Positions 6,003-58,466 of a stretch of DNA of 62,457 nt are shown here, one piece after another. Made by a program: the position numbers and the translations under genes. The stretch spans positions 1 through 62,457 of the forward strand of contig JBAZKA010000006.1 in NCBI GenBank assembly GCA_041651015.1. The letters are read 5' to 3'. Under the pieces are notes generated by a model. It was not told where the DNA came from. It saw only the letters and a program-made list of their open reading frames with translations, and searched no databases. How positions within the stretch are numbered: the first letter of the stretch is position 1; each line of letters opens with the position of its first letter. Source of the stretch: Patescibacteria group bacterium. GTDB lineage: Bacteria > Patescibacteriota > Patescibacteriia > Magasanikbacterales > GWA2-37-8.

Positions 6003-6815
6003 TTATTTTTTATCAGCTTCAATCACTGGATTGACCTGAACAGGATTTTCTTTGGCGCTGAAGTAAAGCAAGATGGAGGTGAGAGCGGTGAGCGGGGAGA
6101 GTAGGGAGCTTAAGATTCCGTAAAAGAAACCGCCTGTTATTTGATAGGCAATGTAATTTGAGTCTTCTGATGTATAGATAATATTTGGTTCAATTTGAAA
6201 GATTGAACCAAGTGTGTAGTTCAACAAATTATATATTATTACAAATAATACGCCGTAAAATATTCCGGGCGCGAGCATCCGCCAGAGAATTTTCCACCAG
6301 CGTCCGCTGACCATTTTTTTACTTTCTGTCAACGCTGCTACGCCGCGTTTTTCATCAAAGATAACAGCGAGATAAGAAAAGCAAAACCAAATGCTGAAAA
6401 TTATACCCGGGATGATAAGCAACAAGGTGCCGCCAAGCACGGCGAGACAAACCAAAACCGCGGTATAAATGGCCGGCCAGATTAGGTGCGATGTGTCGGA
6501 GAATGCTTCTTTCAGAGCGGCCAACGGTTTTTCGTGGACAATTAGACCGAGGTTTTTGGCGAGCGCCATTGAAGCCCAAAGCGTGAATACCAAACTGCCG
6601 ACAAAAACCGCGAGAACAACCAAGTTGTTGATCAGCATGTATACGCCGGTAGCGGCGTATTGGTCCATGTACAGAGAGAATATTCCGACCAGCCCCAACA
6701 CAAAATTCGGGATGAACAAAAGACACATCATCGGGACGAGTTTTTTAAAATTTTTCGCGTAATAACCCCAGCTTTTGTTAATGATTTCCCCTGCGTTAAT
6801 AAGCATATTATCCAA
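6003..6815 (-). CDS. polytopic integral membrane protein, function unknown
   Basis: Multiple long hydrophobic segments. No catalytic motif recognised. Confidence 0.6.
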   Translation of the reverse strand: MDNMLINAGEIINKSWGYYAKNFKKLVPMMCLLFIPNFVLGLVGIFSLYMDQYAATGVYMLINNLVVLAVFVGSLVFTLWASMALAKNLGLIVHEKPLAALKEAFSDTSHLIWPAIYTAVLVCLAVLGGTLLLIIPGIIFSIWFCFSYLAVIFDEKRGVAALTESKKMVSGRWWKILWRMLAPGIFYGVLFVIIYNLLNYTLGSIFQIEPNIIYTSEDSNYIAYQITGGFFYGILSSLLSPLTALTSILLYFSAKENPVQVNPVIEADKK

Positions 6816-28414: not shown

Positions 28415-28418
28415 GATA

Positions 28419-28447
28419 TTGACAAAATTTCGTTTTTCTTATATAAT
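28419..28447 (+). promoter_or_regulatory. sigma-70-type promoter (TTGACA-17-TATAAT) for the tRNA-Gly/tRNA-fMet operon
   Basis: TTGACAAAATTTCGTTTTTCTTATATAAT. Confidence 0.6.
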
Positions 28448-28453
28448 CTAACC

Positions 28454-28544
28454 CAGAGTAAATAGATTTCGCGGGTATACTAAGGTATACCCGCTCATTC
28501 GCGGAAAATGTCAAAATAAATTTTGCCATTTTGCCGCTCATTTC
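28454..28544 (+). promoter_or_regulatory. structured 5' leader of tRNA-Gly(GCC), including an acceptor-stem-like minihelix
   Basis: GCGGGTATAC-TAAG-GTATACCCGCTCA (tRNA 5' and 3' acceptor strands joined). Also AAAATGTCAAAA-TAAA-TTTTGCCATTTT. CCGCTCATTTC lies directly before the tRNA. Confidence 0.4.
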
Positions 28545-28616
28545 GCGGGTATAGTACAACGGTTAGTATACGTCCTTGCCAAGGATGAGATGGCGGTTCG
28601 ATTCCGCTTACCCGCT
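28545..28616 (+). tRNA. tRNA-Gly(GCC), no encoded CCA
   Basis: Manual cloverleaf: acceptor GCGGGUA/UACCCGC, anticodon arm CGUCC-UUGCCAA-GGAUG, T arm GGCGG-UUCGAUU-CCGCU. Confidence 0.85.
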
Positions 28617-28660
28617 CAAGACGACCCATAATTAAGATATGGGTCGCGCTATACATATAT

Positions 28661-28733
28661 AGCGGGGTAGAGCAATTGGCAGCTCGTCGGGCCCATAACC
28701 CGAAGGTTCCCGGTTCAAGTCCGGGCCCCGCAA
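28661..28733 (+). tRNA. initiator tRNA-fMet(CAU), no encoded CCA
   Basis: Nearly identical to the E. coli tRNA-fMet core (GCUCGUCGGGC-C-CAUAACCCGAAGG). Has the three G-C pairs in the anticodon stem and an unpaired 1:72 (A:A). Confidence 0.8.
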
Positions 28734-28734
28734 C

Positions 28735-28770
28735 AAAAGAGTTCAATTATAATAATTGAACTTTTGTTTT
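28735..28770 (+). terminator. rho-independent terminator
   Basis: AAAAGAGTTCAATT-loop-AATTGAACTTTT followed by a T-run. Confidence 0.65.
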
Positions 28771-28818
28771 ATTGGGGATATACTAAGTGGATATAATAAT
28801 TTTTTAAAGTAATGTAGT

Positions 28819-29946
28819 ATGTCAACTAAAGAATTCTTTAATGATCAAAGTGACGGCACTGCCGTAAAGATAAACTTTTATGAAGATTACATAGAGAGTT
28901 ATCTATTCAAGATATTATTATCTTTTGGTAGTTGTATGATCGCAGACTTATTCTGTGGACCGGGCAAAAATGGCGATAAAGATGGAAGCCCGTTAATTTT
29001 GCTTAAAAAAGCAACGGAAGTTTTAAAAGACGAGAAATTTAGTAACAGTGTAAAATCATCCTCGGAAATTATCGTTATTTTTAATGACATTAATAAAGAA
29101 AATATTAATAAGTTAAAAAGTGAGTTATCAGCCATAAGTCTTCCGGGAAATATAAAAATAATTGAACCGCAGAATAATAAATTTAGTGATATCGCCGCAG
29201 AAATTGTTAAGCTTAATATTTCAATGCCCAAATTTTTTTTCTTAGACCCGTTTACATATGGCGACATTCAGCTGTCTGAGATCAAGCAATTAATGGATAT
29301 AAATTGTTCCGAAGTGATGTTATTTATGCCTACATTCTTGGCTTATCGTTTTGCGACGTCAATTAAGAACCCGCAAAAATTGATAAGTTTTTTAAATAAT
29401 TTTACCGACAAAGGAGTTTATGATTATGAAGATATATATGATTTTGTTAATTCAATTAAACGAAAAATTAAGATGGAGCTTGGTTTAAAATTTGTGCAGG
29501 ATGCTCTAATTGATGTCGGCAAAAATAAAAATTCACTTTTTTTATTAACAAAAAACACGAAAGGCGCCATGCTTTTTAATAATCTTTTTTGGAAGGAGTC
29601 TTATGACGGTAAATCATTAAATGTTTCTGAAATTAAACACAATGAAAAAGAACCGAGATTATTTTCTAAAGATGTTCTGCCAACGGCCGAACTTGAAGAA
29701 CGCGTTCTTAACTTTCAGACAAAGGTCATTGATGAATTAAAGAAGAAGCGCAAGATGTGTAATACGGAAGTAATAGAATTTACAGTCGTCGAGGGTTTTA
29801 AGCCGAAACACGCGAACGACGTTCTTATAAAATTAAAAAAAGAAAATAAAATTAGAGTAAATTATTTTAGTGCCTTAAAAGTTAAGGGTTTTTATGTATC
29901 TGAAAAGATGTTCGATCAGAAATTGTGTGAAATAGTATTTTTATAG
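28819..29946 (+). CDS. TcmP-like (three-Cys-motif partner) protein
   Basis: N-terminus ...KINFYEDYIESYLFKIL...IADLFCGPGKNGDKDGSPLILL resembles the TcmP family as I recall it. Paired with the atypical radical-SAM-like gene. Visibly AT-rich. Confidence 0.5.
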   Translation: MSTKEFFNDQSDGTAVKINFYEDYIESYLFKILLSFGSCMIADLFCGPGKNGDKDGSPLILLKKATEVLKDEKFSNSVKSSSEIIVIFNDINKENINKLKSELSAISLPGNIKIIEPQNNKFSDIAAEIVKLNISMPKFFFLDPFTYGDIQLSEIKQLMDINCSEVMLFMPTFLAYRFATSIKNPQKLISFLNNFTDKGVYDYEDIYDFVNSIKRKIKMELGLKFVQDALIDVGKNKNSLFLLTKNTKGAMLFNNLFWKESYDGKSLNVSEIKHNEKEPRLFSKDVLPTAELEERVLNFQTKVIDELKKKRKMCNTEVIEFTVVEGFKPKHANDVLIKLKKENKIRVNYFSALKVKGFYVSEKMFDQKLCEIVFL

Positions 29947-29962
29947 TATAATTACTATATAG

Positions 29963-30814
29963 ATGTTTATGCTTACCATAAAGCGGAAATCCCTACTTTA
30001 TAAAAGCGGTGTTGAATACGCTGATTTTTGCGTTAATCATGTTGAGGGGTGTGCCCACGGTTGCCGGTTTCCTTGCTACGCCATGATGATGAAAAAACGC
30101 TGCGGCATTATCAAAGATTATAAAGATTGGATAAAACCAAAATTAGTGAGTAACGCGTTGGAATTACTGGATAAAGAAATACCCAAATACAAGGATAAAA
30201 TTAAATTTGTCCATCTTTGTTTTACCACTGATCCTTTTATGTATGAGTATCCGGAAGTCAGCGATTTAAGTTTAAAAATCATTGAACGATTTAATAAGGA
30301 TAACATACGCCTAACCGTGTTGACGAAAGGGGTTTATCCGAAAGATTTAGCCGACGGCGAAAAGTATGGAAAAAGGAACGAATATGGTATTACTTTGGTT
30401 TCGTTGAGCGACAAATTTAAAAGAGACTTCGAACCGTTTACTGCATCGTACAGAGAACGAATAAAATCATTAAAATATTTGCATGATAAGGGTTTAAAAA
30501 CATGGATTAGTATGGAGCCGTATCCGACGCCGAATATAGTTTGGCAGGATCTAAATAAAATATTAAAAGAGGTTAGTTTTGTTGATAAAATTATTTTTGG
30601 TAAGTTAAATTACAACGTTGACGCGTCACAGTCCGTTTTTAGGGCCAGTAAAGAATTTTATGATGAGCAGGCGAACATTGTCATAGATTTTTGCAAGGAA
30701 CGAGGTATAGAATATCATATTAAATTTGGCACGCAAAAAAAAGATAGTAAAAAAACCGACAAGATATTTGTTCGTGACGCTACGTCCGTTAGAAGAATTG
30801 CTTACGCAATTTAG
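29963..30814 (+). CDS. radical-SAM-like protein (SplB/DNA-photolyase-like fold) with a CxxxCxxxC motif
   Basis: VEGCAHGCRFPCYAM in place of the canonical CxxxCxxC. Confidence 0.6.
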   Translation: MFMLTIKRKSLLYKSGVEYADFCVNHVEGCAHGCRFPCYAMMMKKRCGIIKDYKDWIKPKLVSNALELLDKEIPKYKDKIKFVHLCFTTDPFMYEYPEVSDLSLKIIERFNKDNIRLTVLTKGVYPKDLADGEKYGKRNEYGITLVSLSDKFKRDFEPFTASYRERIKSLKYLHDKGLKTWISMEPYPTPNIVWQDLNKILKEVSFVDKIIFGKLNYNVDASQSVFRASKEFYDEQANIVIDFCKERGIEYHIKFGTQKKDSKKTDKIFVRDATSVRRIAYAI

Positions 30815-43987: not shown

Positions 43988-45781
43988 ATGAAGAAACTTG
44001 ATTCCCGAGGAGTGATGATCATTGAGGTGATTGTGGCAATCGCCGTTTTTGTAGTTTTTGCAATTGGTGTATATGAGGGGATTAGGTATTTATATAAAAT
44101 AGTTTTCCTATCGCGTTTGCGTATTATTGAAACATCAATTCTCGCCGAGCGAATGGAAATAATTCGCAATGTGCCATACGCAAGCGTCGGCATTGTCGGC
44201 GGTGTGCCGTCCGGAGTTTTTTCTCACGCCACCACGACCGTGCGCAATGGAATTAATTTTACCCTGACGACGTATATCCGAAATGTTGATGACGCGTATG
44301 ATGGTATGGCCACCGGCACCGCTGTCAAAGATACTTCGCCGGCTGATTATAAATTAGTTCAATTGGAAATTATTGCTCAAAATTCCATTCAAGCCAAAGC
44401 TGTTTCGCTCACCACTATTGTCGCGCCAAAAGGTTTAGAAGGAGCTTCAAATAATGGCTCGCTTTTTATCAATGTTTTTGACGCCAATGGTTTGGCCGTA
44501 GTTGGGGCTAATGTTCATGTGGTAAATTCATCAACCAATCCGGCGACTGTGATTGATGATGTCACGGATAATGATGGCATGCTTCGTATCATTGATGTTC
44601 CGACCGGCACGCAAAAATATTTAATTCAGGTGTCAAAGGCCGGATATTCGGCGGATTACAGCGTCAGCACGACCGCGAGTAATCCGTCGCCGACCAAACC
44701 GTATTCCACCGTGGTCAAACAAACCGTTACGGATATTAGTTTTTCCATAGATTTGACGGGTGCGATTAGCCTGAATACGATTTACGATAATTGCGCGATA
44801 GCGCCGAACATCTCGTGGAACTTGCGTGGTGCCAAAAAGATTGGCAACTCCCCGATTGTTTATAAAAATGATGTAGTTTACAACAGCGGTTCGTCGGCTG
44901 TGAACGCTTTGAGCAACGTGGAATGGGATACGTATTATTTGCTTGGTACCACCACGGCTTATTCGGTCGGCGGCACCATCCCAATTTCTCCGTTTTATTT
45001 GTCACCCGGGCAAACGCAAACAGCGTATGTGATTATTCAACCGCGCACCACCAATAATTTATTGGTGAAAATTTTAGATAATTCCACTAATTTGCCGATT
45101 TCCAGTTCAAGTATCCGTCTGGTGGGGGCGGGCTATGATAAAACTCTAATTACCGACCTTGGTTATTCCGCGCAGACCGATTGGTCCGGCGGTTCCGGGC
45201 AAGTGGATTATAGCGACACGGCCAAATACGCGAGTGACGATGGTAATATTGATGCGACTTTGGTCGCCGGAGATTTGAAATTAAAAATTGCGGCCGGAAA
45301 ATATATGCCGAGTGGTTGGTTGGAATCGTCAACTTTTGATCTTGGTTCCTCGGTTGATTTTAGAAATTTGGTTTTTACTCCCATTAGCCAGCCGATACAA
45401 ACCGGCGCGGATTCAGTATTGGCGCAACTGGCCACTTCTAATAGCAGCACGCCGGCTTCGTGGGATTATTACGGTCCGGACGGTACGAGCGCCACATATT
45501 ATTCGCCGACCAGCACTGAGATTAACAGTATCCACGACGGGCAAAGATATATGCGCTATAAAATATTTTTATCCACGGCCAGTACCAGCTACACACCGAC
45601 ATTTTCCGAACTTTCGGTCACCTACACCAACGGTTGTATGCCGCCCGGCCAGGTATTTTTTGACGATGTCGCTTCCTCAACTTACACCTACACGATTTCG
45701 CGCAACGGTTATCTGACAGTCACCGGCACGGTCGCGACCGGAGGGCAAGCGGAATTAACCGCAAGATTAATTGTTAATTGA
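43988..45781 (+). CDS. large type IV pilin-like protein (prepilin-type N-terminus plus carboxypeptidase-regulatory-like domain)
   Basis: SRG/VMIIEVIVAIAVFVV with Glu at +5. VHVVNSSTNPATVIDDVTDNDGMLRIIDVPTGTQKYLIQVSKAGY. Confidence 0.7.
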   Translation: MKKLDSRGVMIIEVIVAIAVFVVFAIGVYEGIRYLYKIVFLSRLRIIETSILAERMEIIRNVPYASVGIVGGVPSGVFSHATTTVRNGINFTLTTYIRNVDDAYDGMATGTAVKDTSPADYKLVQLEIIAQNSIQAKAVSLTTIVAPKGLEGASNNGSLFINVFDANGLAVVGANVHVVNSSTNPATVIDDVTDNDGMLRIIDVPTGTQKYLIQVSKAGYSADYSVSTTASNPSPTKPYSTVVKQTVTDISFSIDLTGAISLNTIYDNCAIAPNISWNLRGAKKIGNSPIVYKNDVVYNSGSSAVNALSNVEWDTYYLLGTTTAYSVGGTIPISPFYLSPGQTQTAYVIIQPRTTNNLLVKILDNSTNLPISSSSIRLVGAGYDKTLITDLGYSAQTDWSGGSGQVDYSDTAKYASDDGNIDATLVAGDLKLKIAAGKYMPSGWLESSTFDLGSSVDFRNLVFTPISQPIQTGADSVLAQLATSNSSTPASWDYYGPDGTSATYYSPTSTEINSIHDGQRYMRYKIFLSTASTSYTPTFSELSVTYTNGCMPPGQVFFDDVASSTYTYTISRNGYLTVTGTVATGGQAELTARLIVN

Positions 45782-45783
45782 TT

Positions 45784-46392
45784 ATGAAAGCGATAAATCG
45801 CCGCGGAATTTCACTGATTGAAACCATGGTGGCCGTGGCCTTAACCGCGGTTTTTGTCGTCGGCATCGCTTCTTTGTTCACCACCAGCATCCAGTCGCGG
45901 AAAATTATTTGGGAACAATTATCCACTCAAGAAGAAGGACGAAAGATCGTGCAAGATTTTGCCACTGAAGTTCGCGGCGCTTGTTATTCCGGCACCGGTG
46001 CTTATCCTTTGGAAATTGCCACCAGTACTGAAGTGGCCTTTTTTTCCAATATAGATACTGATAACGCGATTGAGAGAATTCATTACAAGTTGGTTGGCAC
46101 GTTTCTAAACAAAAGTATTATTAAACCTGCCGGCGACCCGCCATCTTACGTCACCACTACTGAAACGTTTATCACCATGGTGCATGATGTCGTGTACGAG
46201 ACCAGCACTCCGATTTTTACTTACTATCCGGCGACTTACGACGGCACCGGCAGTGCCATGACTTCCACGATATTCAAACCGTATGTCCGAATGATTGGGA
46301 TTAAATTACAACTGGAAGAGCGGCCGAATTTTTCGCCGACTCCTTTTAACATTGAATCAAAAGTTTTGATGAGAAATTTGAAAGATAATTAA
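45784..46392 (+). CDS. type IV minor pilin/pseudopilin
   Basis: RRG/ISLIETMVAVALTAVFVV prepilin cleavage/methylation motif with Glu at +5. ATG start at 45784. Confidence 0.7.
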   Translation: MKAINRRGISLIETMVAVALTAVFVVGIASLFTTSIQSRKIIWEQLSTQEEGRKIVQDFATEVRGACYSGTGAYPLEIATSTEVAFFSNIDTDNAIERIHYKLVGTFLNKSIIKPAGDPPSYVTTTETFITMVHDVVYETSTPIFTYYPATYDGTGSAMTSTIFKPYVRMIGIKLQLEERPNFSPTPFNIESKVLMRNLKDN

Positions 46393-46394
46393 CT

Positions 46395-47771
46395 ATGAAA
46401 TTACCACGCGGACTAAAAAATAATCTTGATAATCGCGGCAATATATTGCTGGTCGCGACCATGTTTGGCTTACTCGCGTTTTCATTCACGGTCGCGGCTA
46501 TTTCCAATTATGCTTTAAGCGAGAACCGCGCTTCAGTTTATAAGCATAATCGCGAACGCGCTTTTCAAATTTCTGAAGCCGGTACTAATTATTATCGTTG
46601 GCATTTAGCGCACAACAACACTGATTATAAAGACGGCACTTCCTCCACCGGTCCGTATTATCATGATTTTGAAGACAAAGACGGAAATGTGATCGGTCGT
46701 TATGCTTTGACCGTCACCCAACCGCCGACCGGCACGACTGTAGTGACGATTGACTCGCAAGGTTGGCTTTTGTCCCAAGAAAACAGCAAAAGAAATATTA
46801 AAATCCAAGTCGGTTTTCCCTCGCTCACAGATTATTCATTTTTAACCAATTCGCAAATTTGGATCGGCAACACTGAATCAACACACGGAAAATTTCAATC
46901 CAATGACGGAGTGCATTTTGATGGCGTGTGCGATGCGCCGGTAATGAGCGCGGTACCCACTTTTTATTGCGATTCATCAATCGGTTGCTCAGGGAAACAA
47001 AACGGAGTTTTTGGCAGCGGCGGTCCGTCACAATTTTTTATTTATCCAATGCCATCAAAAGATTTTTCCGCGGTGACAGCTAAACTTTCCACCATCAAAA
47101 CAAACGCCGGAATTTCTTTATCCAGTTCCGGCGCCTATGGTTGGTATTTAAAATTTTTATCCAGCGGGAAAATATATATCAGTAAAGTGACCGGAGTGAC
47201 CAAGTGTTTGAGCGGTGGTGGTTGGGGTGGTTGGGGTGGTTGGGGTGCAAGCGATTGTTGGGATATTACTTCCACGAGTTCCGGCGCGACCCATGATATG
47301 CCGACTTCAACCTATATTTATGTGGCCGATAATACTTGGGTTGACGGGGTGGTCAAAGGGCGAGTGACTGTGGGCGCGGCTTCGGATACGAAAAATCCCT
47401 CCATAGTTGTTAACGGAAATTTAACCTATGCGGCCAAGGATGGGACAAACGCGATTGGTCTGATTGCCGAGGATGATATTATTGTACCGTATTACTCTCC
47501 GGATAATTTGGAAATTGATGCGGCTATGTTGGCGCAATATGGTAAGGTTTATCGGCCGGAATATAGTAATACAAAAAAAACCATTACGATTTACGGTTCC
47601 ATTTTGACATACGACCAATGGACTTGGTCATATGTGAATTCCAGCAATGTGGTTATTTCCGGTTATATCACCACGACAAATATGTATGATGGAAATTTAA
47701 CTTACAGTCCGCCGCCGGGTTTTCCGGTCGGTTCTGAATATAGTCCAATCAGTTGGGAAGAAACCGATTAA
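46395..47771 (+). CDS. PilX-like pilus-associated protein containing a GGW tandem repeat
   Basis: N-terminal hydrophobic helix NILLVATMFGLLAFSFTVAAI. GGGWGGWGGWG is encoded by a GGTGGTTGG 9-nt repeat at 47214-47247. Confidence 0.55.
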   Translation: MKLPRGLKNNLDNRGNILLVATMFGLLAFSFTVAAISNYALSENRASVYKHNRERAFQISEAGTNYYRWHLAHNNTDYKDGTSSTGPYYHDFEDKDGNVIGRYALTVTQPPTGTTVVTIDSQGWLLSQENSKRNIKIQVGFPSLTDYSFLTNSQIWIGNTESTHGKFQSNDGVHFDGVCDAPVMSAVPTFYCDSSIGCSGKQNGVFGSGGPSQFFIYPMPSKDFSAVTAKLSTIKTNAGISLSSSGAYGWYLKFLSSGKIYISKVTGVTKCLSGGGWGGWGGWGASDCWDITSTSSGATHDMPTSTYIYVADNTWVDGVVKGRVTVGAASDTKNPSIVVNGNLTYAAKDGTNAIGLIAEDDIIVPYYSPDNLEIDAAMLAQYGKVYRPEYSNTKKTITIYGSILTYDQWTWSYVNSSNVVISGYITTTNMYDGNLTYSPPPGFPVGSEYSPISWEETD

Positions 47772-48767: not shown

Positions 48768-50171
48768 ATGGTTTTAAATAAAAAATATTTATTGGCATCC
48801 GCGATGATGGTTTGTCTTTTTGTATTCGCCGGTTTTGGCTGTAAAGGCCAGACCGCCGAGGAAAAACAAGCCACCAAAGCCGTGAGTTTGGAGTATTGGA
48901 CGGTGTATGATGACGTAGATCAGATCAACGCCCAAATTGCCAAATACACGGCCAGCCGTCCGTATCTCACCGTGACCGTGCGCCAACTTCGTTCCGATGA
49001 ATTGTACGATCGTTTGGTGGAAGCGTTGGCCGAAGATAAAGGACCGGATATTATTTCTATCAATGTCCGTGATTTGGCGCGTTTCAAAAGCAAACTATCG
49101 GCCATGCCGCCAAGTTATTCCGATACCACGGTGACGACCCAAAAAAATATTATTAATCAAGTTGAGACCACGGTGGCCACCAAGTCATTGGCATTGCCCA
49201 CCGCGTTTCAAATCGGCAACGAATATTTGCAAACTGTCAAAAAAGACGTGATTATTGATAATAAAATTTACGGCTTGCCATTGTCTTTGGATACTATGGC
49301 AATTTATTACAACAAAGATTTATTGGATAGAGCGCAAGTGGCCGAGCCGCCGGAAACCTGGACTGAATTTCAGGATGCGGTGAAAAAAATCAGCAAATAC
49401 AATGCCGAGAGCGGCAAGATTACCCAATCGGGCGCGGCGCTCGGTTCGGCCAACAATATAGAAGGGGTGGATGATATTTTAAATATTTTGTTCAAACAAA
49501 ATTCAGTCAGTTTGATTTCCAGCGATAATCGCGCGGCCTTTAACACAGTCGCACGAGATTCCTCGGGTGCGAACATCTCTCCGGCCATATCAGTGATGGA
49601 TTTTTATACGGATTTTGCCAATGCCACGCGCGATACATATTCTTGGAATGAATCCATGGATAATTCCGTGGACGCTTTTGTGCAAGGCAAACTGGGATTT
49701 TTATTTGGTTATAGTTACAATAACGCGCAAATTAAATCGCGCGCGCCGCAACTAAATTATGGAATTTTGCCCATGATTCAATTGGACCCGGACAATCCGG
49801 TCAATGCGGCCAATTATTGGGTGCAGTGCGTGGTGAGCAAATCCGCCGGCCAAAACACGGCTTGGGGTCTGATCAATTTTTTGTCGCGAACTTCGGCCAA
49901 CAAAGAATACTTGACTGCGACCGCGCGCCCAACCGCTTTGCGCGCGAACGTGGCTTCGCAAAAAGAAGATGTAAATTTACAGCCTTTTGTTTCTCAGTTG
50001 CTCGTGGCCGAAAATTGGTATCGGGGCAATGATTACGCCGGCGCATCTCAAGCGCTCAAAGATATGATTTCCGAATGGCTGCAAGTTCCGCCAAAATACG
50101 AAAGCAAAGTAATGCAATGGGACCAAGAAGTTTTGAATCGCGCGGCTGCGAAAATAAACCAGACACTGTAA
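48768..50171 (+). CDS. lipoprotein, ABC-type extracellular solute-binding protein (family 1-like)
   Basis: Lipobox FAGFGCKG. LPLSLDTMAIYYNKDLLD-type SBP pattern. No permease or ATPase genes adjacent. Confidence 0.7.
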   Translation: MVLNKKYLLASAMMVCLFVFAGFGCKGQTAEEKQATKAVSLEYWTVYDDVDQINAQIAKYTASRPYLTVTVRQLRSDELYDRLVEALAEDKGPDIISINVRDLARFKSKLSAMPPSYSDTTVTTQKNIINQVETTVATKSLALPTAFQIGNEYLQTVKKDVIIDNKIYGLPLSLDTMAIYYNKDLLDRAQVAEPPETWTEFQDAVKKISKYNAESGKITQSGAALGSANNIEGVDDILNILFKQNSVSLISSDNRAAFNTVARDSSGANISPAISVMDFYTDFANATRDTYSWNESMDNSVDAFVQGKLGFLFGYSYNNAQIKSRAPQLNYGILPMIQLDPDNPVNAANYWVQCVVSKSAGQNTAWGLINFLSRTSANKEYLTATARPTALRANVASQKEDVNLQPFVSQLLVAENWYRGNDYAGASQALKDMISEWLQVPPKYESKVMQWDQEVLNRAAAKINQTL

Positions 50172-50175
50172 TGAT

Positions 50176-51069
50176 ATGAAAAATTTTTCCAAAATAATTT
50201 TATTTGCCGTGATTATCAGTGGTTTGACCGCGGCCAAGGTTGCGTTTGCCTCCAATCTTATCCCCGAGTGTTTGCTCGGTACCACTTTTAGCGCTGAGTG
50301 TGACAACATCAATCAATTCATTATTTTGGGCATCAATGTTGGCACATATATTTTTGGGTTTATCGGCGCGTTGGCGTTGTTGTTTTTTGTCTATGGCGGT
50401 TTTATTTTGATATTATCTCAAGGCAATCAAGAAAAAATCAAGCAAGGCACCGGCGCCATGACGGCGGCCGTTATCGGTTTGGTGATTGCGTTTGGCGCGT
50501 ATGCCCTGATTACATTTTTGGGCAATACCGTCGGGCTCAAAGCGGAAAAAAGTTTGAATTTTGTGGAAACGGCTTGGGCTGGTGACACGACGCCGCAAAG
50601 ATGTACCTTGGCAGAAGGGTGTTATTGTCTGGACGAAGACAGCAATGAGTGTTCGGCGATTATCAACGATGACGATTGTTATGGCACGCTCACAACCGAA
50701 CCGTGTGAAGACAGTTCTGTCGGCACCGGTTCAAACGCGGCCGGAGTAATGACCGAAGAGGTCGGCACAGCCACCGGAGACACTTCGGGCAATATTTCGG
50801 CTTTGAAGCAAGCGGCCATGAGTTTAAATCCAGCTGACATTGGCGAGCCGGCAGATTTATTTGCCCGCGCCATCAACGCGATGACGGCATTTATGGGGTC
50901 AATCGCCTTAATTTTGTATATTTACGCCGGTTTTATTTGGATGTCGGCCGGAGGCGCGGCTGATAAAATTACCAAAGCCAAAAATATTTTAATTTGGACC
51001 ACGCTTGGTGCTGTGGCCATGGGCGCCGGTTATATGATTATTCGCACGGTGTTGGAAAAAATCGGGTGA
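50176..51069 (+). CDS. T4SS-pilin-like (VirB2/TrbC-type) protein with two pilin modules joined by a Cys-rich acidic linker
   Basis: Module 1 is YGGFILILSQGNQEKIKQG. Module 2 is YAGFIWMSAGGAADKITKAK. The linker is CTLAEGCYCLDEDSNECSAIINDDDCYGTLTTEPC. Confidence 0.65.
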   Translation: MKNFSKIILFAVIISGLTAAKVAFASNLIPECLLGTTFSAECDNINQFIILGINVGTYIFGFIGALALLFFVYGGFILILSQGNQEKIKQGTGAMTAAVIGLVIAFGAYALITFLGNTVGLKAEKSLNFVETAWAGDTTPQRCTLAEGCYCLDEDSNECSAIINDDDCYGTLTTEPCEDSSVGTGSNAAGVMTEEVGTATGDTSGNISALKQAAMSLNPADIGEPADLFARAINAMTAFMGSIALILYIYAGFIWMSAGGAADKITKAKNILIWTTLGAVAMGAGYMIIRTVLEKIG

Positions 51070-51084
51070 TATTTTAGTTATATT

Positions 51085-51450
51085 ATGAAAAAAAATTTAT
51101 TATTTATTTGCGCGCTGCTCTCCTTGGGTCTATTTTGTGCTTCACCGGTTTTGGCGGCCACTTCAAGCGATGCCGGCGCAACTGTATCATTGGATAACCC
51201 GCTTAACACGAACACTACCGATCCGGCGCAAATTATTGGTCTTGTTATTAAATCAGTGTTGGGCATTGTCGGCGGCGCGGCTTTGGTAATGGTGGTATGG
51301 GGAGGGTTCCAATGGCTCACTTCAGCCGGCAATCCGGAAAAAGTTAAAAAAGGTTCGTCCACGATGATTTGGTCGGTAATCGGTTTAATTTTGGTGTTGG
51401 GAAGTTATTTATTGGTGCAGAATGTTTTGAATTTTATTACGGGAACATGA
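51085..51450 (+). CDS. T4SS-pilin-like small membrane protein
   Basis: Signal peptide plus WGGFQWLTSAGNPEKVKKG between two hydrophobic helices. Confidence 0.65.
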   Translation: MKKNLLFICALLSLGLFCASPVLAATSSDAGATVSLDNPLNTNTTDPAQIIGLVIKSVLGIVGGAALVMVVWGGFQWLTSAGNPEKVKKGSSTMIWSVIGLILVLGSYLLVQNVLNFITGT

Positions 51451-51548
51451 AATGACAATAAATACAAATATCAGTTGCGGAAAAGTTGATAATAATGTAT
51501 CATTATACATATGAAAAAAAATCAAAAATTGCGAAGGGAGGTGACATT

Positions 51549-51941
51549 ATGAAGAAATTATTATATGGATTAGCCACCTTTGCTTTGATTTTCGGCGGAT
51601 ACATCGGTTTGGCCATCCCGGCTCACGCCGCTGATACCAGTCCGATTGAGGTTGGAGATTTGGGCTTGTCTTATGGCGAAGAAACCGGTCTCGGCACAGC
51701 AGATGTGCGCAGCACAATCGCGTCAATTATCCGTGTGGCCATGGGCCTCTTGGGTATCGTCGCAGTGGTGATTATCCTCATCGGCGGCTTCAAATGGATG
51801 ACGGCCGGCGGTAACGAAGACCAAGTCGGAGAAGCCAAGAAATGGATTTTCTCAGGCGTGATCGGTCTCGTGATCATCTTGTCTGCCTACGCCCTCGCCA
51901 GCTTTATTATCACTCAGCTTGTTCAAGCAACAACAGAATAA
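51549..51941 (+). CDS. T4SS-pilin-like small membrane protein
   Basis: GGGAGGTG SD. IGGFKWMTAGGNEDQVGEAK core. Start set at MKKLLYG. Confidence 0.65.
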   Translation: MKKLLYGLATFALIFGGYIGLAIPAHAADTSPIEVGDLGLSYGEETGLGTADVRSTIASIIRVAMGLLGIVAVVIILIGGFKWMTAGGNEDQVGEAKKWIFSGVIGLVIILSAYALASFIITQLVQATTE

Positions 51942-51946
51942 AAATT

Positions 51947-51991
51947 TTTCTGTCAGGGGGTTCGCGCGCGCAATCCCCTGACAGAAATTTT
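51947..51991 (+). terminator. strong rho-independent terminator inside the pilin-like array
   Basis: TTTCTGTCAGGGG-N15-CCCCTGACAGAAA followed by TTTT. Confidence 0.75.
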
Positions 51992-52029
51992 GGATTGCAT
52001 TTCACCTAAATTGGAATACAGTTCAAAGT

Positions 52030-52410
52030 ATGTTATCAGTAAAAAAAATAATCGTAGGCATTTTATTGGCGATGGCTTTGGCATTGCCGATTTTTGTTTT
52101 AGCCGCAGACAAATATGGCGCAAGCGCCACGGCCGAACAAACCAGTTTGTCGCGCTTGAGCCTTAGTAACAAAACTCCCGAATCGCTCGCCTCGCAAATT
52201 GTCACTATAGTCCTCGGATTTACGGCCACGATTTTTTTTCTAATGGTTTTATATGGCGGTATCACTTGGATGACGGCCATGGGTGCGCCGGACAAAGTAA
52301 ACAAAGCTAAAGATATTTTGATTACCGCCATTCTTGGCATGGTCATTGTGGCCGCGTCATACGCTATCAGCGTGTTTATTTTTAGTAAAATATCGTCAGC
52401 CGGCGCTTAA
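52030..52410 (+). CDS. T4SS-pilin-like small membrane protein
   Basis: YGGITWMTAMGAPDKVNKAK core between two hydrophobic helices. Confidence 0.65.
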   Translation: MLSVKKIIVGILLAMALALPIFVLAADKYGASATAEQTSLSRLSLSNKTPESLASQIVTIVLGFTATIFFLMVLYGGITWMTAMGAPDKVNKAKDILITAILGMVIVAASYAISVFIFSKISSAGA

Positions 52411-52414
52411 GGTT

Positions 52415-53359
52415 ATGAAAAAATTTTTATTGTCTACATTTATTTTTGCCGTTTCATTGGTTGCTCTGCCTTCAATTGTTTTTGGCGCCGGTGATTATGG
52501 TTTGGGTATGGCGGCCACCACCGGCGGTTTGACTTCCTCAACTATCAGCCAAGCGGGCGACATACCGACCATGCTCGGTTATATTATATCAATCGCCTTA
52601 TCACTGGTCGGCGTATTCTTTTTTATTTTGATTTTATACGCGGGAATTATTTGGATGACAGCAGCCGGCGCGGCCGATCGAGTGGAAAGCGCCAAGAAAA
52701 AAATGATGTCCGCGGCCATTGGTCTGGTGATTGTTTTGTCGGCTTATGCCATTGCCAATTTTGTTTTCAGCAATTTACTTCGGGATCAATCGGCGGTGGA
52801 TGCGGATAACTTATCATCTTTCTGCGCCGCTTCACCGGCCGGCACGGTTTGCGCCGCGAATAAAGTTTGCGACGGCAATCAGTGTGTTGAAGAATGTCTG
52901 TATACTTTCAAAGAACACAATGGTTCGTGTATCAACATGGCGTCTGATCCTTGCGCCGGCGTGATTTTAAGCGGCAAATGTTCGGGCGGTAAAAAATGTT
53001 GCGTGCCATCCGCTGATTACGATAATTGGGAAACTTCGGTGCTGACGGACACAAGTGAAACGACGAATTTAGTCAGCGAAGAATCAGGGACCAGTGCGTG
53101 CGAAAAGAAAGCCGGACATTTCTGTGCCACCAAGGCCATCTGCGAGAGTGGAGCTTACAACGGCGCCGGTACCGAGCAAAATGGTTGTGATAGTGGTGAA
53201 GTCTGTTGTAATAATTGTGTTCAACTGGGCGGCAACTGCATTGATAATACTAAATATACATGCGGACCGGATAATGTAAATTTTGAACCCGGTTATTGCC
53301 ACGGCGCGTTTGGCGCGAATAAATTTCAATGTTGTTTAGGTACATACACACTCAAATAA
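52415..53359 (+). CDS. T4SS-pilin-like module fused to a C-terminal region of about 190 aa with 22 Cys
   Basis: YAGIIWMTAAGAADRVESAK core. The tail has two Cys-rich halves, one ending KKCCVPS and the other ending QCCLGTYTLK. Start set at MKKFLLS. Confidence 0.65.
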   Translation: MKKFLLSTFIFAVSLVALPSIVFGAGDYGLGMAATTGGLTSSTISQAGDIPTMLGYIISIALSLVGVFFFILILYAGIIWMTAAGAADRVESAKKKMMSAAIGLVIVLSAYAIANFVFSNLLRDQSAVDADNLSSFCAASPAGTVCAANKVCDGNQCVEECLYTFKEHNGSCINMASDPCAGVILSGKCSGGKKCCVPSADYDNWETSVLTDTSETTNLVSEESGTSACEKKAGHFCATKAICESGAYNGAGTEQNGCDSGEVCCNNCVQLGGNCIDNTKYTCGPDNVNFEPGYCHGAFGANKFQCCLGTYTLK

Positions 53360-53383
53360 ATTGCCAATAATTATTTATTATTT

Positions 53384-53881
53384 ATGAAAAAATTATTACT
53401 TACGTTTATTATAATCAGCGCGCTGATTCCCTTGTCTGCTTTGGCGGCCGACACATTTGGTTCCGGAATGTTGACCGGCTCGGCCGGCAATCTGGGCTTG
53501 CAAAGTGATTTAAACACCGGCGTAGCCGCCGTGATATCCGCGATTCTTGCAGTCACCGGCACGATATTTTTGGTGCTGACAATTGTCGGTGGTATTATTT
53601 GGATGACAGCTTCGGGCAATGATGAAAAAATCAGCCAAGCCAAAAAAATTATTATTGGCGCGGCCGTGGGCTTGGCTGTTTGTTTGTTTGCTTATACAAT
53701 TACCTGGTTTGTGGCCAACAATTTAGGCAACGCTTCATCGGCTGGATCAACGAGCGGCAGCGAGACCACCGGTTGTTGTGTTTGGTCTACAGGTGGTAGT
53801 GACACCAGTCAAGGAACCATGACTGAAAACGCCTGTGATCTGCATGATGGTTCATCATGGAGTTCAGGTGCATCTTGTTGA
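53384..53881 (+). CDS. T4SS-pilin-like protein with a CC...C...W...C C-terminal mini-domain
   Basis: VGGIIWMTASGNDEKISQAK core. Tail GCCVWSTGGSDTSQGTMTENACDLHDGSSWSSGASC. Confidence 0.65.
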   Translation: MKKLLLTFIIISALIPLSALAADTFGSGMLTGSAGNLGLQSDLNTGVAAVISAILAVTGTIFLVLTIVGGIIWMTASGNDEKISQAKKIIIGAAVGLAVCLFAYTITWFVANNLGNASSAGSTSGSETTGCCVWSTGGSDTSQGTMTENACDLHDGSSWSSGASC

Positions 53882-53893
53882 TAATCCAGATAT

Positions 53894-54445
53894 ATGAATA
53901 TTTTTTTTAAAAAATATTTTACTTTGTCTCTCATTGGTTTATTGTTGATGGCGGGATTTTTATTCCCTTTGTCTGCGTCAGCTCAAGGGCTCAAAGATGC
54001 CGGCGCCACTTTGGGCGATATGCAAAATCAAGGTGTGACTCTTTCCGGTGATTTGTCGGGCACGGCCAACACAGTGGTTAAAACAATTTTTTATTTAGTC
54101 GGTACAATTTTTTTAGTCTTGGTGATTTACGGCGGTATTGTTTGGATGAAATCCGCCGGACGTGACGCCGAAGTGGCCCGCGCCAAACGGATTGTCGCCA
54201 CGTCGGTGATTGGCGTGGTCATACTCTTGCTTTCATACGCCATTACGACTTTTGTCATGGGAAGATTGACTGGAAGCTCCACCGGCACGAGCAACGGCTC
54301 GGGAACTCCGGTGGATACATCCTCTTTGGGTTGTTGTTATTCATCCAGTGAATCTGATGACGGGCTAAATCATTTCCCCTCAAGTAAATCCACTTGCGAA
54401 GACAATGGCGGCGCATACTACTGGAGCAGTTCGCAATGTCATTAA
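53894..54445 (+). CDS. T4SS-pilin-like protein with a CC...C...W...C C-terminal mini-domain
   Basis: YGGIVWMKSAGRDAEVARAK core. Tail GCCYSSSESDDGLNHFPSSKSTCEDNGGAYYWSSSQCH. Confidence 0.65.
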   Translation: MNIFFKKYFTLSLIGLLLMAGFLFPLSASAQGLKDAGATLGDMQNQGVTLSGDLSGTANTVVKTIFYLVGTIFLVLVIYGGIVWMKSAGRDAEVARAKRIVATSVIGVVILLLSYAITTFVMGRLTGSSTGTSNGSGTPVDTSSLGCCYSSSESDDGLNHFPSSKSTCEDNGGAYYWSSSQCH

Positions 54446-54540
54446 TTGCTTTATTTTTTTTGAATTTTTAATTTTTTAAAATTAGAAATTAGGATATTTA
54501 TTAAAAATTACAAAATTATAAAAATTAAAAATTTTCATAT

Positions 54541-55155
54541 ATGTCCACCTCAAAAAAATTAATTTTATTTTTCGCCATTGCCTCGGGTGTTATGCTTTTT
54601 ACCACGCTGGTTTTTGCCGCCTCGGTTTCAGCCGCCGACATCGGTTTCGGTTCGGGTGGTATGGCCGCGGATATTGCCAGCAAGGCCGGTTACGACACGG
54701 CGCAAACCAGCACCTCGTTGTCCCAAACAGTCGGCGGAATTATTCGCGCCGTGCTCTCGGTCATCGGGGTTTTATTTTTGGGTTTGACCATTTTCGCCGG
54801 CTTTATGTGGATGACGGCCTCGGGCAACGAAGACAAGGTGACCAAGGCAAAAAGTATTTTGACTTCCTCGGTGATCGGCCTCGTAATCGTGGTTGCGTCT
54901 TATGGCATTACCGCTTTAGTATTTTCTTTTTTCTTTCAAGCCACCGCGCCGGCCACTGATGTAAGCACCGGTAGTGCCGGCGATGGAGAAATGGGTTGTT
55001 GTGTGAGCGAAGACGAATCAAAATGCGGCCAAACAAATACGCGCAGTTCCTGTACAACAAAATCCGGGTGGGGCAATGCCTCGTGGTATGCCGGTGAATC
55101 TTGCACGCCATATATTACCTTGAATACCAATTGTGAAATTCAAAATGATTTATAA
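54541..55155 (+). CDS. T4SS-pilin-like protein with an extended Cys-rich C-terminal mini-domain
   Basis: FAGFMWMTASGNEDKVTKAK core. Tail GCCVSEDESKCGQTNTRSSCTTKSGWGNASWYAGESCTPYITLNTNC. Confidence 0.65.
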   Translation: MSTSKKLILFFAIASGVMLFTTLVFAASVSAADIGFGSGGMAADIASKAGYDTAQTSTSLSQTVGGIIRAVLSVIGVLFLGLTIFAGFMWMTASGNEDKVTKAKSILTSSVIGLVIVVASYGITALVFSFFFQATAPATDVSTGSAGDGEMGCCVSEDESKCGQTNTRSSCTTKSGWGNASWYAGESCTPYITLNTNCEIQNDL

Positions 55156-55177
55156 CCGCTCTGTCAATTAAAATTGT

Positions 55178-55600
55178 ATGAAAAAAATAAAATTACTCGC
55201 CTTGTTCGCGGTATTGGGATTATCTTGTTTGATGCCGTTCGCGGTTTCGGCCGCCGATAGCACTGTGGGCGCGATAGAAAGTAATTTGCAAGCCGCGGCC
55301 GAGACCGGTGCCGGGTTTGCTTCGCCGGTTGATCCGCGTGTGCAAGCGGCAATTTATATTCGCTATGCTTTACAAGTAGTCGGGATTTTGTTTGTCTGTC
55401 TCATGGTTTACGCCGGCTTCCTTTGGATGACGGCCGGCGGTAATGAGGACAATATTGATAAGGCCAAAAAATTAATAATGGCGGCCGTCATCGGGCTTGT
55501 CATTGTTTTGACTTCGTATAGTATCACTTATTTTGTCGCTAAGTTGGTGACCGGCGATGATGATAATTTTTCTTCCAACGACGCCACAATTTTTAAGTAA
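55178..55600 (+). CDS. T4SS-pilin-like small membrane protein
   Basis: YAGFLWMTAGGNEDNIDKAK core. Acidic tail without Cys. Confidence 0.65.
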   Translation: MKKIKLLALFAVLGLSCLMPFAVSAADSTVGAIESNLQAAAETGAGFASPVDPRVQAAIYIRYALQVVGILFVCLMVYAGFLWMTAGGNEDNIDKAKKLIMAAVIGLVIVLTSYSITYFVAKLVTGDDDNFSSNDATIFK

Positions 55601-57271: not shown

Positions 57272-57456
57272 TGTTATCTCTCCTTCCGCTTGCTTAGCGG
57301 GGTTGAATTGTCAACGTTTTATAAATAGCATATTTTGGGGTTTTTGTCAACCCCGACGCCCCTTAGGGTCGGGGTCCCGACCTTGCGTCGGGAGGGTCTG
57401 ATTAGGCTAATTTTAGGGAAAAACAAAAACAAGCCTGATATGAATTAGGATTGTTT

Positions 57457-57514
57457 TTAGGGCGGCTCGGCTACTGGGAATGTCACTAAGTATTTAGGGC
57501 GGCTACTGGGAATT
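57457..57514 (-). repeat. two partial direct duplications of the tRNA-His 3' end (att-like)
   Basis: TATTTAGGGCGGCTACTGGGAATT (57491-57514) is identical to 57665-57688 at the real gene. A degenerate copy with a CGG insertion lies at 57457-57486. An inverted T-arm fragment GTTCAATTCCCAGTA lies at 57607-57621. Confidence 0.7.
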
Positions 57515-57672
57515 TCACTCGGCGCTCTGCGCCTCTCGCGGAAACCTTCGGGTTTCCGCGGACCTTCCTCGGCAATGCGGGGAAATACTTTCCCCGCCAC
57601 CCCTTTGTTCAATTCCCAGTACACTCACAAAAATATATAACCCCAGCACTTCGGCTGGGGTTATATATTTAG

Positions 57673-57744
57673 GGCGGCTACTGGGAATTGAACCCAGGTG
57701 ACTGGTACCACAAACCAGTGTTCTACCATTGAACTATAGCCGCC
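57673..57744 (-). tRNA. tRNA-His(GUG) with encoded G-1
   Basis: G-1 pairs with C73. Anticodon arm CUGGU-UUGUGGU-ACCAG. T arm CUGGG-UUCAAUU-CCCAG. A terminator hairpin follows at 57637-57665. Confidence 0.85.
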
Positions 57745-57971: not shown

Positions 57972-58466
57972 ATGAAAAAGAAAATTTTACTTATTATCAT
58001 TATTGCCCTGTTTTTGGCCTTTGCTCGCGAAGCATTGGCCGCCGGCGGATTTGGCTTGGATACCACAGCCCAGCAAGCCGGCTATGAGACATCCGGCACA
58101 ACGGCTTCTCTCTCGGGGCGCGTGGAAATCATTATTTCCACTGTGCTCGGTTTTGTCGCTCTCGGATTTTTTGCTCTAACTCTATACGGCGGAATTATTT
58201 GGCTGACCGCCCGAGGCAAAGAAGAAAAAGTCACGCAGGCCAAAGAAATTTTGGAAGCGGCGGTCATTGGTTTGGTGGTCATTAGTGCATCATATGCAAT
58301 CGCCAAATTTGTGTTTGCGCAATTGAGCACTGTCGGTGATAGTACTACCGGCACGTATTGTTATTGGTATGATACGACTTGTACTCCGATAAATAGCGAG
58401 GCCGACAGCCAAGCCTGTGTCGCTGATCCGAGTCTTGGCCAGATAGTCAGTTCGTGTGGAGGATAA
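57972..58466 (+). CDS. T4SS-pilin-like protein with a 4-Cys C-terminal tail (tenth paralogue, detached from the array)
   Basis: YGGIIWLTARGKEEKVTQAK core. Tail YCYWYDTTCTPINSEADSQACVADPSLGQIVSSCGG. Start set at MKKKILL. Confidence 0.65.
   Translation: MKKKILLIIIIALFLAFAREALAAGGFGLDTTAQQAGYETSGTTASLSGRVEIIISTVLGFVALGFFALTLYGGIIWLTARGKEEKVTQAKEILEAAVIGLVVISASYAIAKFVFAQLSTVGDSTTGTYCYWYDTTCTPINSEADSQACVADPSLGQIVSSCGG

Follow-up and report, generated by a model that had tools for sequence, protein, structure and literature searches.

A conserved array of T4SS_pilin-family genes at the pnp locus of Candidatus Magasanikbacteria

Introduction

VirB2-like pilins have been recorded in 1,948 Patescibacteria assemblies, lying near virB4 in 1,135 of them, and 441 arrays of 2-11 pilin genes have been described in 383 assemblies, with a mean identity of 25% and a maximum of 54% (Quinonero-Coronel et al. 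2025, PMC12102498). Host-range versatility has been suggested for these arrays in the same survey (PMC12102498). In Ca. Southlakia epibionticum ML1, a predicted pilin series within the gene cluster for a type IV secretion system (T4SS) was reported to be essential for epibiotic growth (Wang et al. 2023, PMC10633639), and a 2025 review speaks of the "potential to elaborate conjugative pili" (PMC12857230). Patescibacteria pilin arrays are already known as a kind, and the locus described here adds another: ten pilin-like genes in a 62,457-nucleotide stretch of DNA (contig JBAZKA010000006.1 of assembly GCA_041651015.1; hereafter, the window). The genes are named p1-p10, these being the ten plus-strand open reading frames (ORFs) of the set in coordinate order.

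Ten genes and eleven pilin domains

A previous reading of the window, made from the sequence only, had proposed ten ORFs, nine of them consecutive on one strand and one at 57972-58466. All ten are present at those coordinates in the ORF list, and the array with its associated signals is composed as follows:

50176-51069, plus strand: p1, fused double pilin of 297 amino acids (aa) (PF18895, 35.8 bits)
51085-51450, plus strand: p2, plain tail-less pilin of 121 aa (PF18895, 47.1 bits)
51534-51544, plus strand: strong Shine-Dalgarno site AAGGGAGGTGA, separated from the p3 start codon by 4 nt (from the sequence)
51549-51941, plus strand: p3, plain pilin of 130 aa with no Cys and no tail (PF18895, 44.8 bits)
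51947-51991, plus strand: stem-loop and T-tract directly 3' of p3, core GGGGGTTCGCGCGCGCAATCCCC (-29.4 kcal/mol, z -4.5)
52030-52410, plus strand: p4, plain pilin of 126 aa (PF18895, 28.3 bits; orthologues in 10 loci)
52415-53359, plus strand: p5, pilin of 314 aa with a 190-aa C-terminal tail at 52784-53356 (PF18895, 33.1 bits)
53384-53881, plus strand: p6, 165-aa pilin whose tail of 48 aa is rich in Ser/Gly and Cys and includes a GCC motif (PF18895, 35.8 bits)
53894-54445, plus strand: p7, 183-aa pilin whose tail of 55 aa contains Cys and a GCC motif (PF18895, 32.3 bits)
54446-54540, plus strand: p7-p8 intergenic spacer, ~92% A+T (read from the sequence)
54541-55155, plus strand: p8, pilin of 204 aa with a 70-aa tail (PF18895, 35.1 bits)
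55178-55600, plus strand: p9, pilin of 140 aa with a short Cys-free tail (PF18895, 31.0 bits)
57972-58466, plus strand: p10, solitary pilin of 164 aa with a 43-aa tail containing 4 Cys (PF18895, 28.7 bits)

The p3 start was set at the ATG inside a longer TTG-initiated ORF that begins at 51486, and p4 is restricted to the closer relatives. The contiguous array ends with p9, which converges on a glycosyltransferase gene; p10 lies ~2.4 kb downstream, past that gene and two tRNA genes and immediately before rpsO. The spacer between p7 and p8, previously described as AT-only, is a possible promoter region for p8-p9.

Each of the ten proteins exceeds the gathering cut-off of Pfam family PF18895, T4SS_pilin (28.3-47.1 bits against 26.6), and precomputed PF18895 matches fall on the same genes in independent assemblies. 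With a hidden Markov model (HMM) built from the copies themselves, a six-frame translation of the window yields 11 domains in the 10 ORFs (E-values of 1e-30 to 1e-42) and no further pilin domain, the next best E-value being 2.7. The description of a ten-member family is accordingly right for genes and one short for domains, since the first gene holds two. The two Pfam families that had been put forward for checking gave a divided answer: all ten copies pass PF18895, and PF04956 (TrbC/VIRB2) stays below its threshold of 27.9 bits, with 22.8 bits for p2 (E 1e-4), 20.3 for p3 (E 7e-4) and no match for the other eight. The window proteins are related to PF04956 without belonging to it at threshold, and some p3 orthologues carry a precomputed PF04956 match. 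The best NCBIfam model is NF045849 for nine of the ten copies, with nearly the whole of its 80 positions covered; the highest scores (p3, 38.4 bits, E 7e-10; p2, 38.0 bits, E 1e-9) lie below the 40-bit cut-off for membership.

Core identity between copies in the window ranges from 21 to 44%, with a mean of 32%. In having nine contiguous genes, one more ~2.4 kb away and low identity between copies, the locus corresponds to a Patescibacteria VirB2 array. The copies share the loop consensus [GA]-G-[FI]-x-W-[ML]-T-[AS]-x-G-x-x-[ED]-x-[VI]-x-x-[AG]-K, which the sequence-only reading had called almost invariant; it is a good consensus, with a wider first position ([GA]) and with exceptions in p1, p2, p7 and p10. 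The motif [SA]-Y-x-[IL], earlier placed at the end of the second helix as SYA[IL], falls in the middle of that helix.

Topology

By Kyte-Doolittle hydropathy, every copy has a signal-like stretch at its N-terminus followed by two long hydrophobic ones, and AxA-type cleavage sites can be read from the sequences, such as AHA|AD in p3. The AlphaFold2 model of p3 consists of a signal helix (residues 2-22) and a hairpin of two helices (53-85 and 90-129) joined by a 4-residue loop, with a predicted local distance difference test (pLDDT) score mostly above 90. Taken together, hydropathy, sequence and the p3 model bear out the signal peptide plus two-helix layout of VirB2/TrbC-type pilins that had been proposed, and all ten copies display it.

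Conservation of the locus and age of the array

With PNPase as the anchor, one genome per GTDB species was scanned, and the 80 loci obtained were then searched with the purpose-built pilin HMM. The closest named relatives of the window's PNPase belong to Candidatus Magasanikbacteria or Magasanikiibacteriota, at up to 87-91% identity. On these relationships the host is assigned to Candidatus Magasanikbacteria (Patescibacteria, class ABY1), in agreement with the candidate phyla radiation host anticipated earlier.

Where PNPase identity is at least ~70% and enough upstream DNA is available, almost every locus carries 8-12 pilin domains in the same place, and the same loci have the solitary p10 copy ~1.3 kb upstream of pnp. 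At a PNPase identity of 66% or less, no pilin domain was found in any locus with enough upstream DNA. One locus (L043), with a PNPase identity of 63-75% depending on the segment scored, keeps the array; three others (L041, L042 and L044; 68-71%) keep the solitary copy and lack the main array. By best-hit assignment, p1 to p10 are collinear and thus represent positional orthologues across ~30 species whose PNPases are 70-87% identical, and the conserved order of the locus is u458-GalU-SBP-[array]-GT-p10-rpsO-NYN-pnp (SBP, solute-binding protein; GT, glycosyltransferase).

The array had previously been interpreted as a locally amplified, diverging repertoire, and a comparison of copy number and order in relatives had been suggested. 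That comparison, with its 8-12 domains and collinear p1 to p10, speaks against local amplification. The best DNA segment common to the window copies (90 nt) is only 60-70% identical, and recent duplication or gene conversion is ruled out by this repeat analysis. Because the copies are 21-44% identical and a collinear set occurs in ~30 species, the array is an old, maintained set of distinct subunits and no recent local amplification. In addition, a tblastn search of 72,556 plasmids with p3 returned no match at E-values up to 1, and there is in these plasmids no sequence-level sign of an origin from a plasmid or an integrative and conjugative element (ICE).

Two observations on the records themselves are added here. 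For L003, L007-L009, L016 and many other loci, the record title gives Methanoregula sp., Candidatus Udaeobacter sp. or "uncultured Gammaproteobacteria"; their PNPases are 72-91% identical to that of the window and many carry the Magasanikbacteria pilin array, so that these bins are evidently mislabelled or contaminated. In L060, the p9 orthologue (6068-6290) is split into two overlapping ORFs of 126 and 61 aa, possibly through a frameshift or an assembly error.

A distinct and highly conserved copy, p3

Among the ten copies, p3 is the most conserved, with a median identity to its orthologues of 65% (up to 85%) compared to 39-49% for the others. When 52 p3 sequences (that of the window and 51 orthologues) were aligned together with three window paralogues, the mature protein proved nearly invariant throughout. 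More than 2800 p3 homologues were found, and their source names are "pilin" or "TrbC/VIRB2 family protein".

The expression signals of p3 are equally distinctive. A strong Shine-Dalgarno site precedes p3 only, the other nine starts having none or a weak one, and in nearly every one of 26 relatives GAAAGGGGGTGA-N4-5-ATG or a near-identical variant stands ahead of the p3 orthologue. The gaps flanking p3 have medians of ~86 and ~115 nt, against usually 0-25 nt between other genes. The stem-loop at 51947-51991, noted previously as a strong terminator, is a real and stable structure, and a hairpin of -18 kcal/mol or lower follows 85% of p3 orthologues (median -25.8 kcal/mol). After orthologues of the other copies, strong hairpins occur in 0-14% of cases in eight groups and in 43% for p9, the last gene of the array. 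In 14 species, the core GGGGGTTCGCGCGCGCAACCCCC of the p3 hairpin is common to all, the lower stem varies, and 10 of 18 pairs show compensatory double changes. The 62-kb window has the motif only once, as does every locus carrying it, and its position is always 3' of p3. The stem-loop could serve as a terminator, an attenuator or an mRNA stabiliser. Genes for major structural subunits usually stand out by high conservation, by strong translation signals and by a terminator or stabiliser of their own; by these marks, p3 probably encodes the major filament subunit.

Cysteine-rich tails and the double pilin

The remaining copies differ mainly beyond the second helix. Whereas p2, p3, p4 and both halves of p1 stop within a few residues of helix 2, p5, p6, p7, p8 and p10 are extended by tails of 43-190 residues that contain Cys. 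Across the ~30 species, tails never occur in the p2 and p3 groups, and Cys-rich ones are nearly always present in p5, p6 and p10 (17 of 18 members in the p6 group) and present in about half of the p7 and p8 orthologues. The p7 tail is missing in L007, L027 and L060, the p6 tail differs in sequence between species, and the p8 tail motif GCC..C..C..W[YF][AP]GESCTPY is kept in close relatives.

The p5 tail contains 22 Cys, with three matches to a C..C..C..CC pattern, and the positions C152, C161, C172, C189, C195 and C196 are invariant in its orthologues. No Pfam family covers any of the tails. An exhaustive HMMER search of 1.84 billion representative proteins retrieved just 13 relatives of the p5 tail, which comprise pilin-sized orthologues, giant WD40 proteins rejected as spurious repeat matches, and one secreted protein (P0133); a word-indexed search with the same tail found only itself and one orthologue. 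P0133 is a 423-aa secreted protein with five tandem copies of the p5-tail Cys module (C..QGSC.D....C.G....G.CPG.ANIKCC.P), and neither its C-terminal domain nor the whole protein has a Pfam family. Its existence means that the module also occurs outside pilins.

The F-type pilus exposes both ends of its pilin on the outer surface, and peptides fused to the F-pilin C-terminus are displayed there. For the window proteins, loss of the signal peptide would leave two membrane helices and place both mature ends outside the cell. Given this orientation and the F-pilus analogy, the Cys-rich tails should lie on the surface of a filament, or would decorate the cell surface if there is no filament.

A different elaboration is seen in p1, in which a signal peptide and a first hairpin (residues ~54-115) are followed by an acidic, Cys-rich linker and a second hairpin (residues ~227-297), the two domains scoring 5e-14 and 1.7e-28 with the purpose-built HMM. 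The gene is fused in L005-L007 and is represented by two genes in L060, L027 and most other relatives; in L060, the closest full-length relative, each of the two has its own signal peptide.

Secretion machinery

Pfam scans of the ~55 further window ORFs, a few of which have no family, gave no match to the VirB4, VirB6, VirB8, VirD4 or relaxase families, in agreement with what the sequence-only reading had reported for VirB4, VirB6, VirD4 and relaxase genes. In the close relatives L005 and L006, no VirB4-sized ORF occurs within 10 kb downstream of pnp. Across 84 loci, ORFs of at least 450 aa with a Walker A motif resemble ComM/YifB-type ATPases and SMC rather than VirB4, as judged from their N-termini only and with no family search made on them.

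In Ca. Magasanikbacteria GW2011_GWA2_37_8, the p3 orthologue (P0114) is KKQ40372.1, and a contig carrying exactly this protein shows the same locus; it encodes 9 pilin domains, and its PNPase is 78% identical to that of the window. This genome (GCA_000992085.1; class ABY1), the one syntenic genome compared with the survey tables, is VirB4-positive there (Table S1, PMC12102498), with VirB4, TrsD and VirB3 as genes 794-796 (Table S3, PMC12102498). A single VirB2, gene 380, is listed there for this assembly with the entry "VirB4 proximity: No" (PMC12102498). KKQ40372.1 is not listed in Table S3, and in the rows examined PF18895 is entered in the Pfam column of virB4-near genes only (PMC12102498). 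Arrays remote from virB4 were probably under-detected in the 2025 survey.

Gene neighbourhood and other features of the window

The array is bordered on its upstream side by the following gene:

48768-50171, plus strand: solute-binding lipoprotein gene (SBP_bac_1, lipobox AGFGC; Pfam PF01547)

It ends 4 nt before p1 and adjoins the array in all relatives with enough DNA. It is an orphan, with no ABC permease or ATPase gene adjacent. It is probably co-transcribed with p1-p2, and it may share expression with the array or have a functional link to it. Further upstream lie galU and then three consecutive plus-strand genes (43988-47771; 597, 204 and 458 aa) with the prepilin-type leaders RG|VMIIE, RG|ISLIE and RG|NILLV. 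They stand two genes upstream of the pilin array, one of them matches Pfam N_methyl, and their neighbourhood is kept in relatives; they look like type IV pilus minor-pilin-like genes, belonging to a system distinct from the T4SS.

Downstream of p9 follow a convergent glycosyltransferase gene resembling monogalactosyldiacylglycerol (MGDG) synthase, tRNA-His, tRNA-Arg, p10, rpsO, an NYN-domain gene and pnp. The tRNA-His gene occupies 57672-57743 on the minus strand, and downstream of its 3' end (57330-57700) are two partial direct copies of the tRNA 3' end, including a 24-nt perfect repeat at 57491 and 57666, with a further copy at 57468. The same region holds several G+C-rich hairpins and a sub-threshold Rfam match to Clostridiales-2 RNA (29.6 bits against 58.6), and may be an integration scar at a tRNA or a small RNA. 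Downstream of pnp, L005 (13.9-17.7 kb) and L006 (13.4-17.1 kb) each have ~3.7 kb without an ORF of at least 150 aa, which could be an rRNA operon.

By Pfam, the ~55 further ORFs represent ordinary chromosomal content, including NrdD/NrdG, RuvB, UvrD, GatB, TrpRS, TGT, ribosomal proteins L1 and S15, EF-P, PNPase, ThyX, Tmk, dUTPase, a P-type ATPase, a sigma factor and one rve transposase. The last, a DDE integrase at 106-1140 (plus strand), is the sole mobile-element gene recognised in the 62 kb. A stretch at 28001-30000 has a G+C fraction of 0.35 against ~0.45 elsewhere and contains tRNA-Gly, tRNA-Met, and a 375-aa ORF with only a weak GMT-wHTH match, which a radical SAM gene follows; the stretch is possibly a short foreign insertion beside the tRNA genes. 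The ThyX gene (7526-8977, minus strand), within a nucleotide-salvage cluster with Tmk, dUTPase and dCMP deaminase, encodes 483 aa with two Thy1 stretches, a duplicated or fused flavin-dependent thymidylate synthase.

Proposed function and alternative explanations

Starting from the observed family membership, topology, conservation, synteny and expression signals, the explanation that we hold to be on balance probable is that p1-p10 are VirB2-like paralogues, with p3 as the major and the other nine as accessory subunits of a T4SS encoded elsewhere in the genome, half of them bearing outward-facing Cys-rich modules. Each pilin would be a Sec substrate and lose its signal peptide by cleavage after an AxA-type site, leaving a two-helix hairpin in the membrane with both ends outward and the conserved loop (W-M-T-A-x-G ... 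A-K-K) in the cytoplasm. A Patescibacteria-type T4SS (VirB4, TrsD, VirB3/PrgI and VirB6) would then extract and polymerise these hairpins, with p3 as the abundant subunit and the other nine as low-abundance accessory or alternative subunits. The disulfide-rich C-terminal modules of p5-p8 and p10 would be displayed outside the filament, probably binding host-cell surfaces. Pilus formation, dependence on a T4SS, the major and minor roles and adhesion are the steps that we infer.

A more specific form of this proposal, in which a monoderm-type cell builds a composite T4SS pilus with a p3 shaft, up to nine conserved accessory pilins each covalently fused to or associated with a different disulfide-rich surface module, a covalent p1 dimer and a cassette uncoupled from its machinery, forming an orphan class apparently missed by the survey, is a tentative possibility. 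If it is true, the pilins would themselves carry the adhesin role that elsewhere falls to separate proteins (VirB5, PrgB), and the whole subunit set would be inherited as a fixed, order-conserved cassette, genetically apart from the secretion machinery.

Several results weigh against the proposal of a major subunit and accessory pilins. In the window, the 50 kb upstream and the 7 kb downstream of the array contain no recognised T4SS gene. A profile of p3 orthologues searched against PDB sequences found no VirB2, TraA or TrbC chain; its only matches were to Pumilio, with E-values of 0.36 or worse, and were rejected as chance. A Foldseek search of the PDB returned generic helical hairpins, with a best E-value of 0.5 and no pilin in the best 50. 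A two-helix hairpin is too simple to discriminate: the modelled fold is compatible with VirB2 and cannot prove it, and the structural link to solved pilins is made through Pfam alone. The AlphaFold2 model of p5, built from 9 sequences, has a mean pLDDT of 59 (50-73 in the tail) and is too poor for a fold search. The upstream region of p3 in the window shows no canonical promoter match, and the division into major and minor subunits is drawn from expression signals and conservation rather than from expression data. Furthermore, the monoderm (MPF-FATA) T4SSs from which the Patescibacteria system is proposed to derive are normally without pili, and no pilus of this kind has been reported from any Patescibacterium (PMC12102498, PMC12857230).

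An alternative already suggested for Patescibacteria (PMC12102498) is that the copies form a variation repertoire, that is, interchangeable major subunits diversified for escape from recognition or for matching to host strains, as proposed for the VirB2 paralogues of Bartonella and Anaplasma. The interpretation given in the sequence-only reading comes near to this. Many divergent tandem copies, a copy number varying from 8 to 12 domains, and tails that are gained, lost or replaced between species (p7 in L007, L027 and L060, and p6) would be expected of such a repertoire, as would the faster divergence of all pilins except p3 relative to neighbouring housekeeping proteins (medians of 39-49% against 70-87% for PNPase). 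However, order and positional orthology are kept across ~30 species, recent duplicates and DNA-level homogenisation are lacking among the window copies, no silent-cassette or invertible-promoter architecture is visible, and the distinct, conserved expression signals of p3 point to fixed, non-equivalent roles. This explanation is therefore considered unlikely.

It is also conceivable that no filament is made and that the hairpins stay in the cytoplasmic membrane or a T4SS channel, lining the channel or anchoring Cys-rich domains, so that "pilin" would denote distant homology only. Besides the pilus-free monoderm T4SSs and the want of an imaged Patescibacteria T4SS pilus in the sources cited above, this is favoured by the generic hairpin fold, which has ATP synthase subunit c and proteins like it as its nearest neighbours in structure, by the separation of the array from virB4, and by the origin of the nearest NCBIfam relative in Mycoplasma, a wall-less monoderm with no known pilus. 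Nevertheless, the Pfam family is VirB2-related and several orthologues also match TrbC/VirB2; a polymer subunit is usually recognised by just such a single, highly conserved gene copy that has very strong translation signals and a terminator to itself; and the loop motif and helix-2 glycines are conserved in all copies, which fits the packing constraints of a filament. We regard a role without any filament as quite unlikely. Finally, that the ORFs are chance or mis-called hydrophobic sequences, or ordinary unrelated inner-membrane proteins, has a negligible probability and is already refuted: short hydrophobic proteins can give spurious HMM matches and three copies score only 28-31 bits against 26.6, but all ten pass the curated cut-off, match one another at 1e-30 to 1e-42 and have in-frame orthologues in dozens of species.

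If p3 and the accessory pilins act as proposed, the locus offers a testable division of labour between one conserved, strongly signalled subunit and a fixed accessory set, half of it with Cys-rich modules. In the one genetically manipulable Patescibacterium, a T4SS and its pilin series are reported to be essential for epibiotic growth, and the surface or host-contact role envisaged in the sequence-only reading has likewise been proposed in the literature (PMC10633639, PMC12102498). That reading had missed this published precedent, together with p3 as the probable major subunit, the Cys-rich tails on half of the copies and the double pilin p1. Such arrays can lie far from virB4, and surveys of virB4 neighbourhoods may undercount them. 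The conserved hairpin combined with the Shine-Dalgarno signature could also serve to pick candidate major pilins in other lineages.

Comparison with known systems

Like the VirB2, TrbC and TraA pilins of the T-pilus, RP4 pilus and F-pilus (PF04956), the window proteins are small and Sec-exported, with a signal peptide and a hydrophobic hairpin around a short polar loop. Unlike them, they score below the PF04956 threshold and have no detectable sequence match to solved pilins; the classical pilins come from diderm T4SSs with one such gene, whereas the host of the window is of monoderm type and has ten paralogues. To our knowledge, C-terminal Cys-rich extensions are not a feature of classical VirB2 or TraA. 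The nearest NCBIfam model, the Mbov_0395 family pilin-like conjugal transfer protein of Mycoplasma ICEs (NF045849), shares a monoderm, MPF-FATA-type context, and it fits the monoderm ancestry proposed for the Patescibacteria T4SS. In contrast to the window array, which scores below the cut-off and has no ICE context, NF045849 is an equivalog model for a single ICE gene.

The most similar systems are the Patescibacteria VirB2 arrays themselves, including those of the survey, that of Southlakia and the "Sec secreted array" of TM7x. Shared features are PF18895, the same phylum, tandem order with an occasional non-pilin gene in between, a copy number within the published range, and low identity (mean of 32% here and 25% in the survey). 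The window array differs in lying outside a virB4 cluster, in a housekeeping locus (GalU-SBP ... rpsO-pnp), and in belonging to Magasanikbacteria (ABY1), whereas the survey arrays are mostly from Microgenomatia and Saccharimonadia. Collinear clade-wide conservation, a probable major subunit, Cys-rich tails and a fused double pilin find no mention in the searched passages of PMC12102498 and PMC10633639.

Multiple divergent tandem genes of VirB2 type are also found in Bartonella (the TrwL copies of the Trw system) and Anaplasma phagocytophilum, with a proposed role in making surface interactions more diverse (cited in PMC12102498). Those organisms are diderm animal pathogens whose arrays lie within or beside the T4SS operon; in the window set, in contrast, orthology and gene order hold from species to species, and one copy stands out by its conservation.

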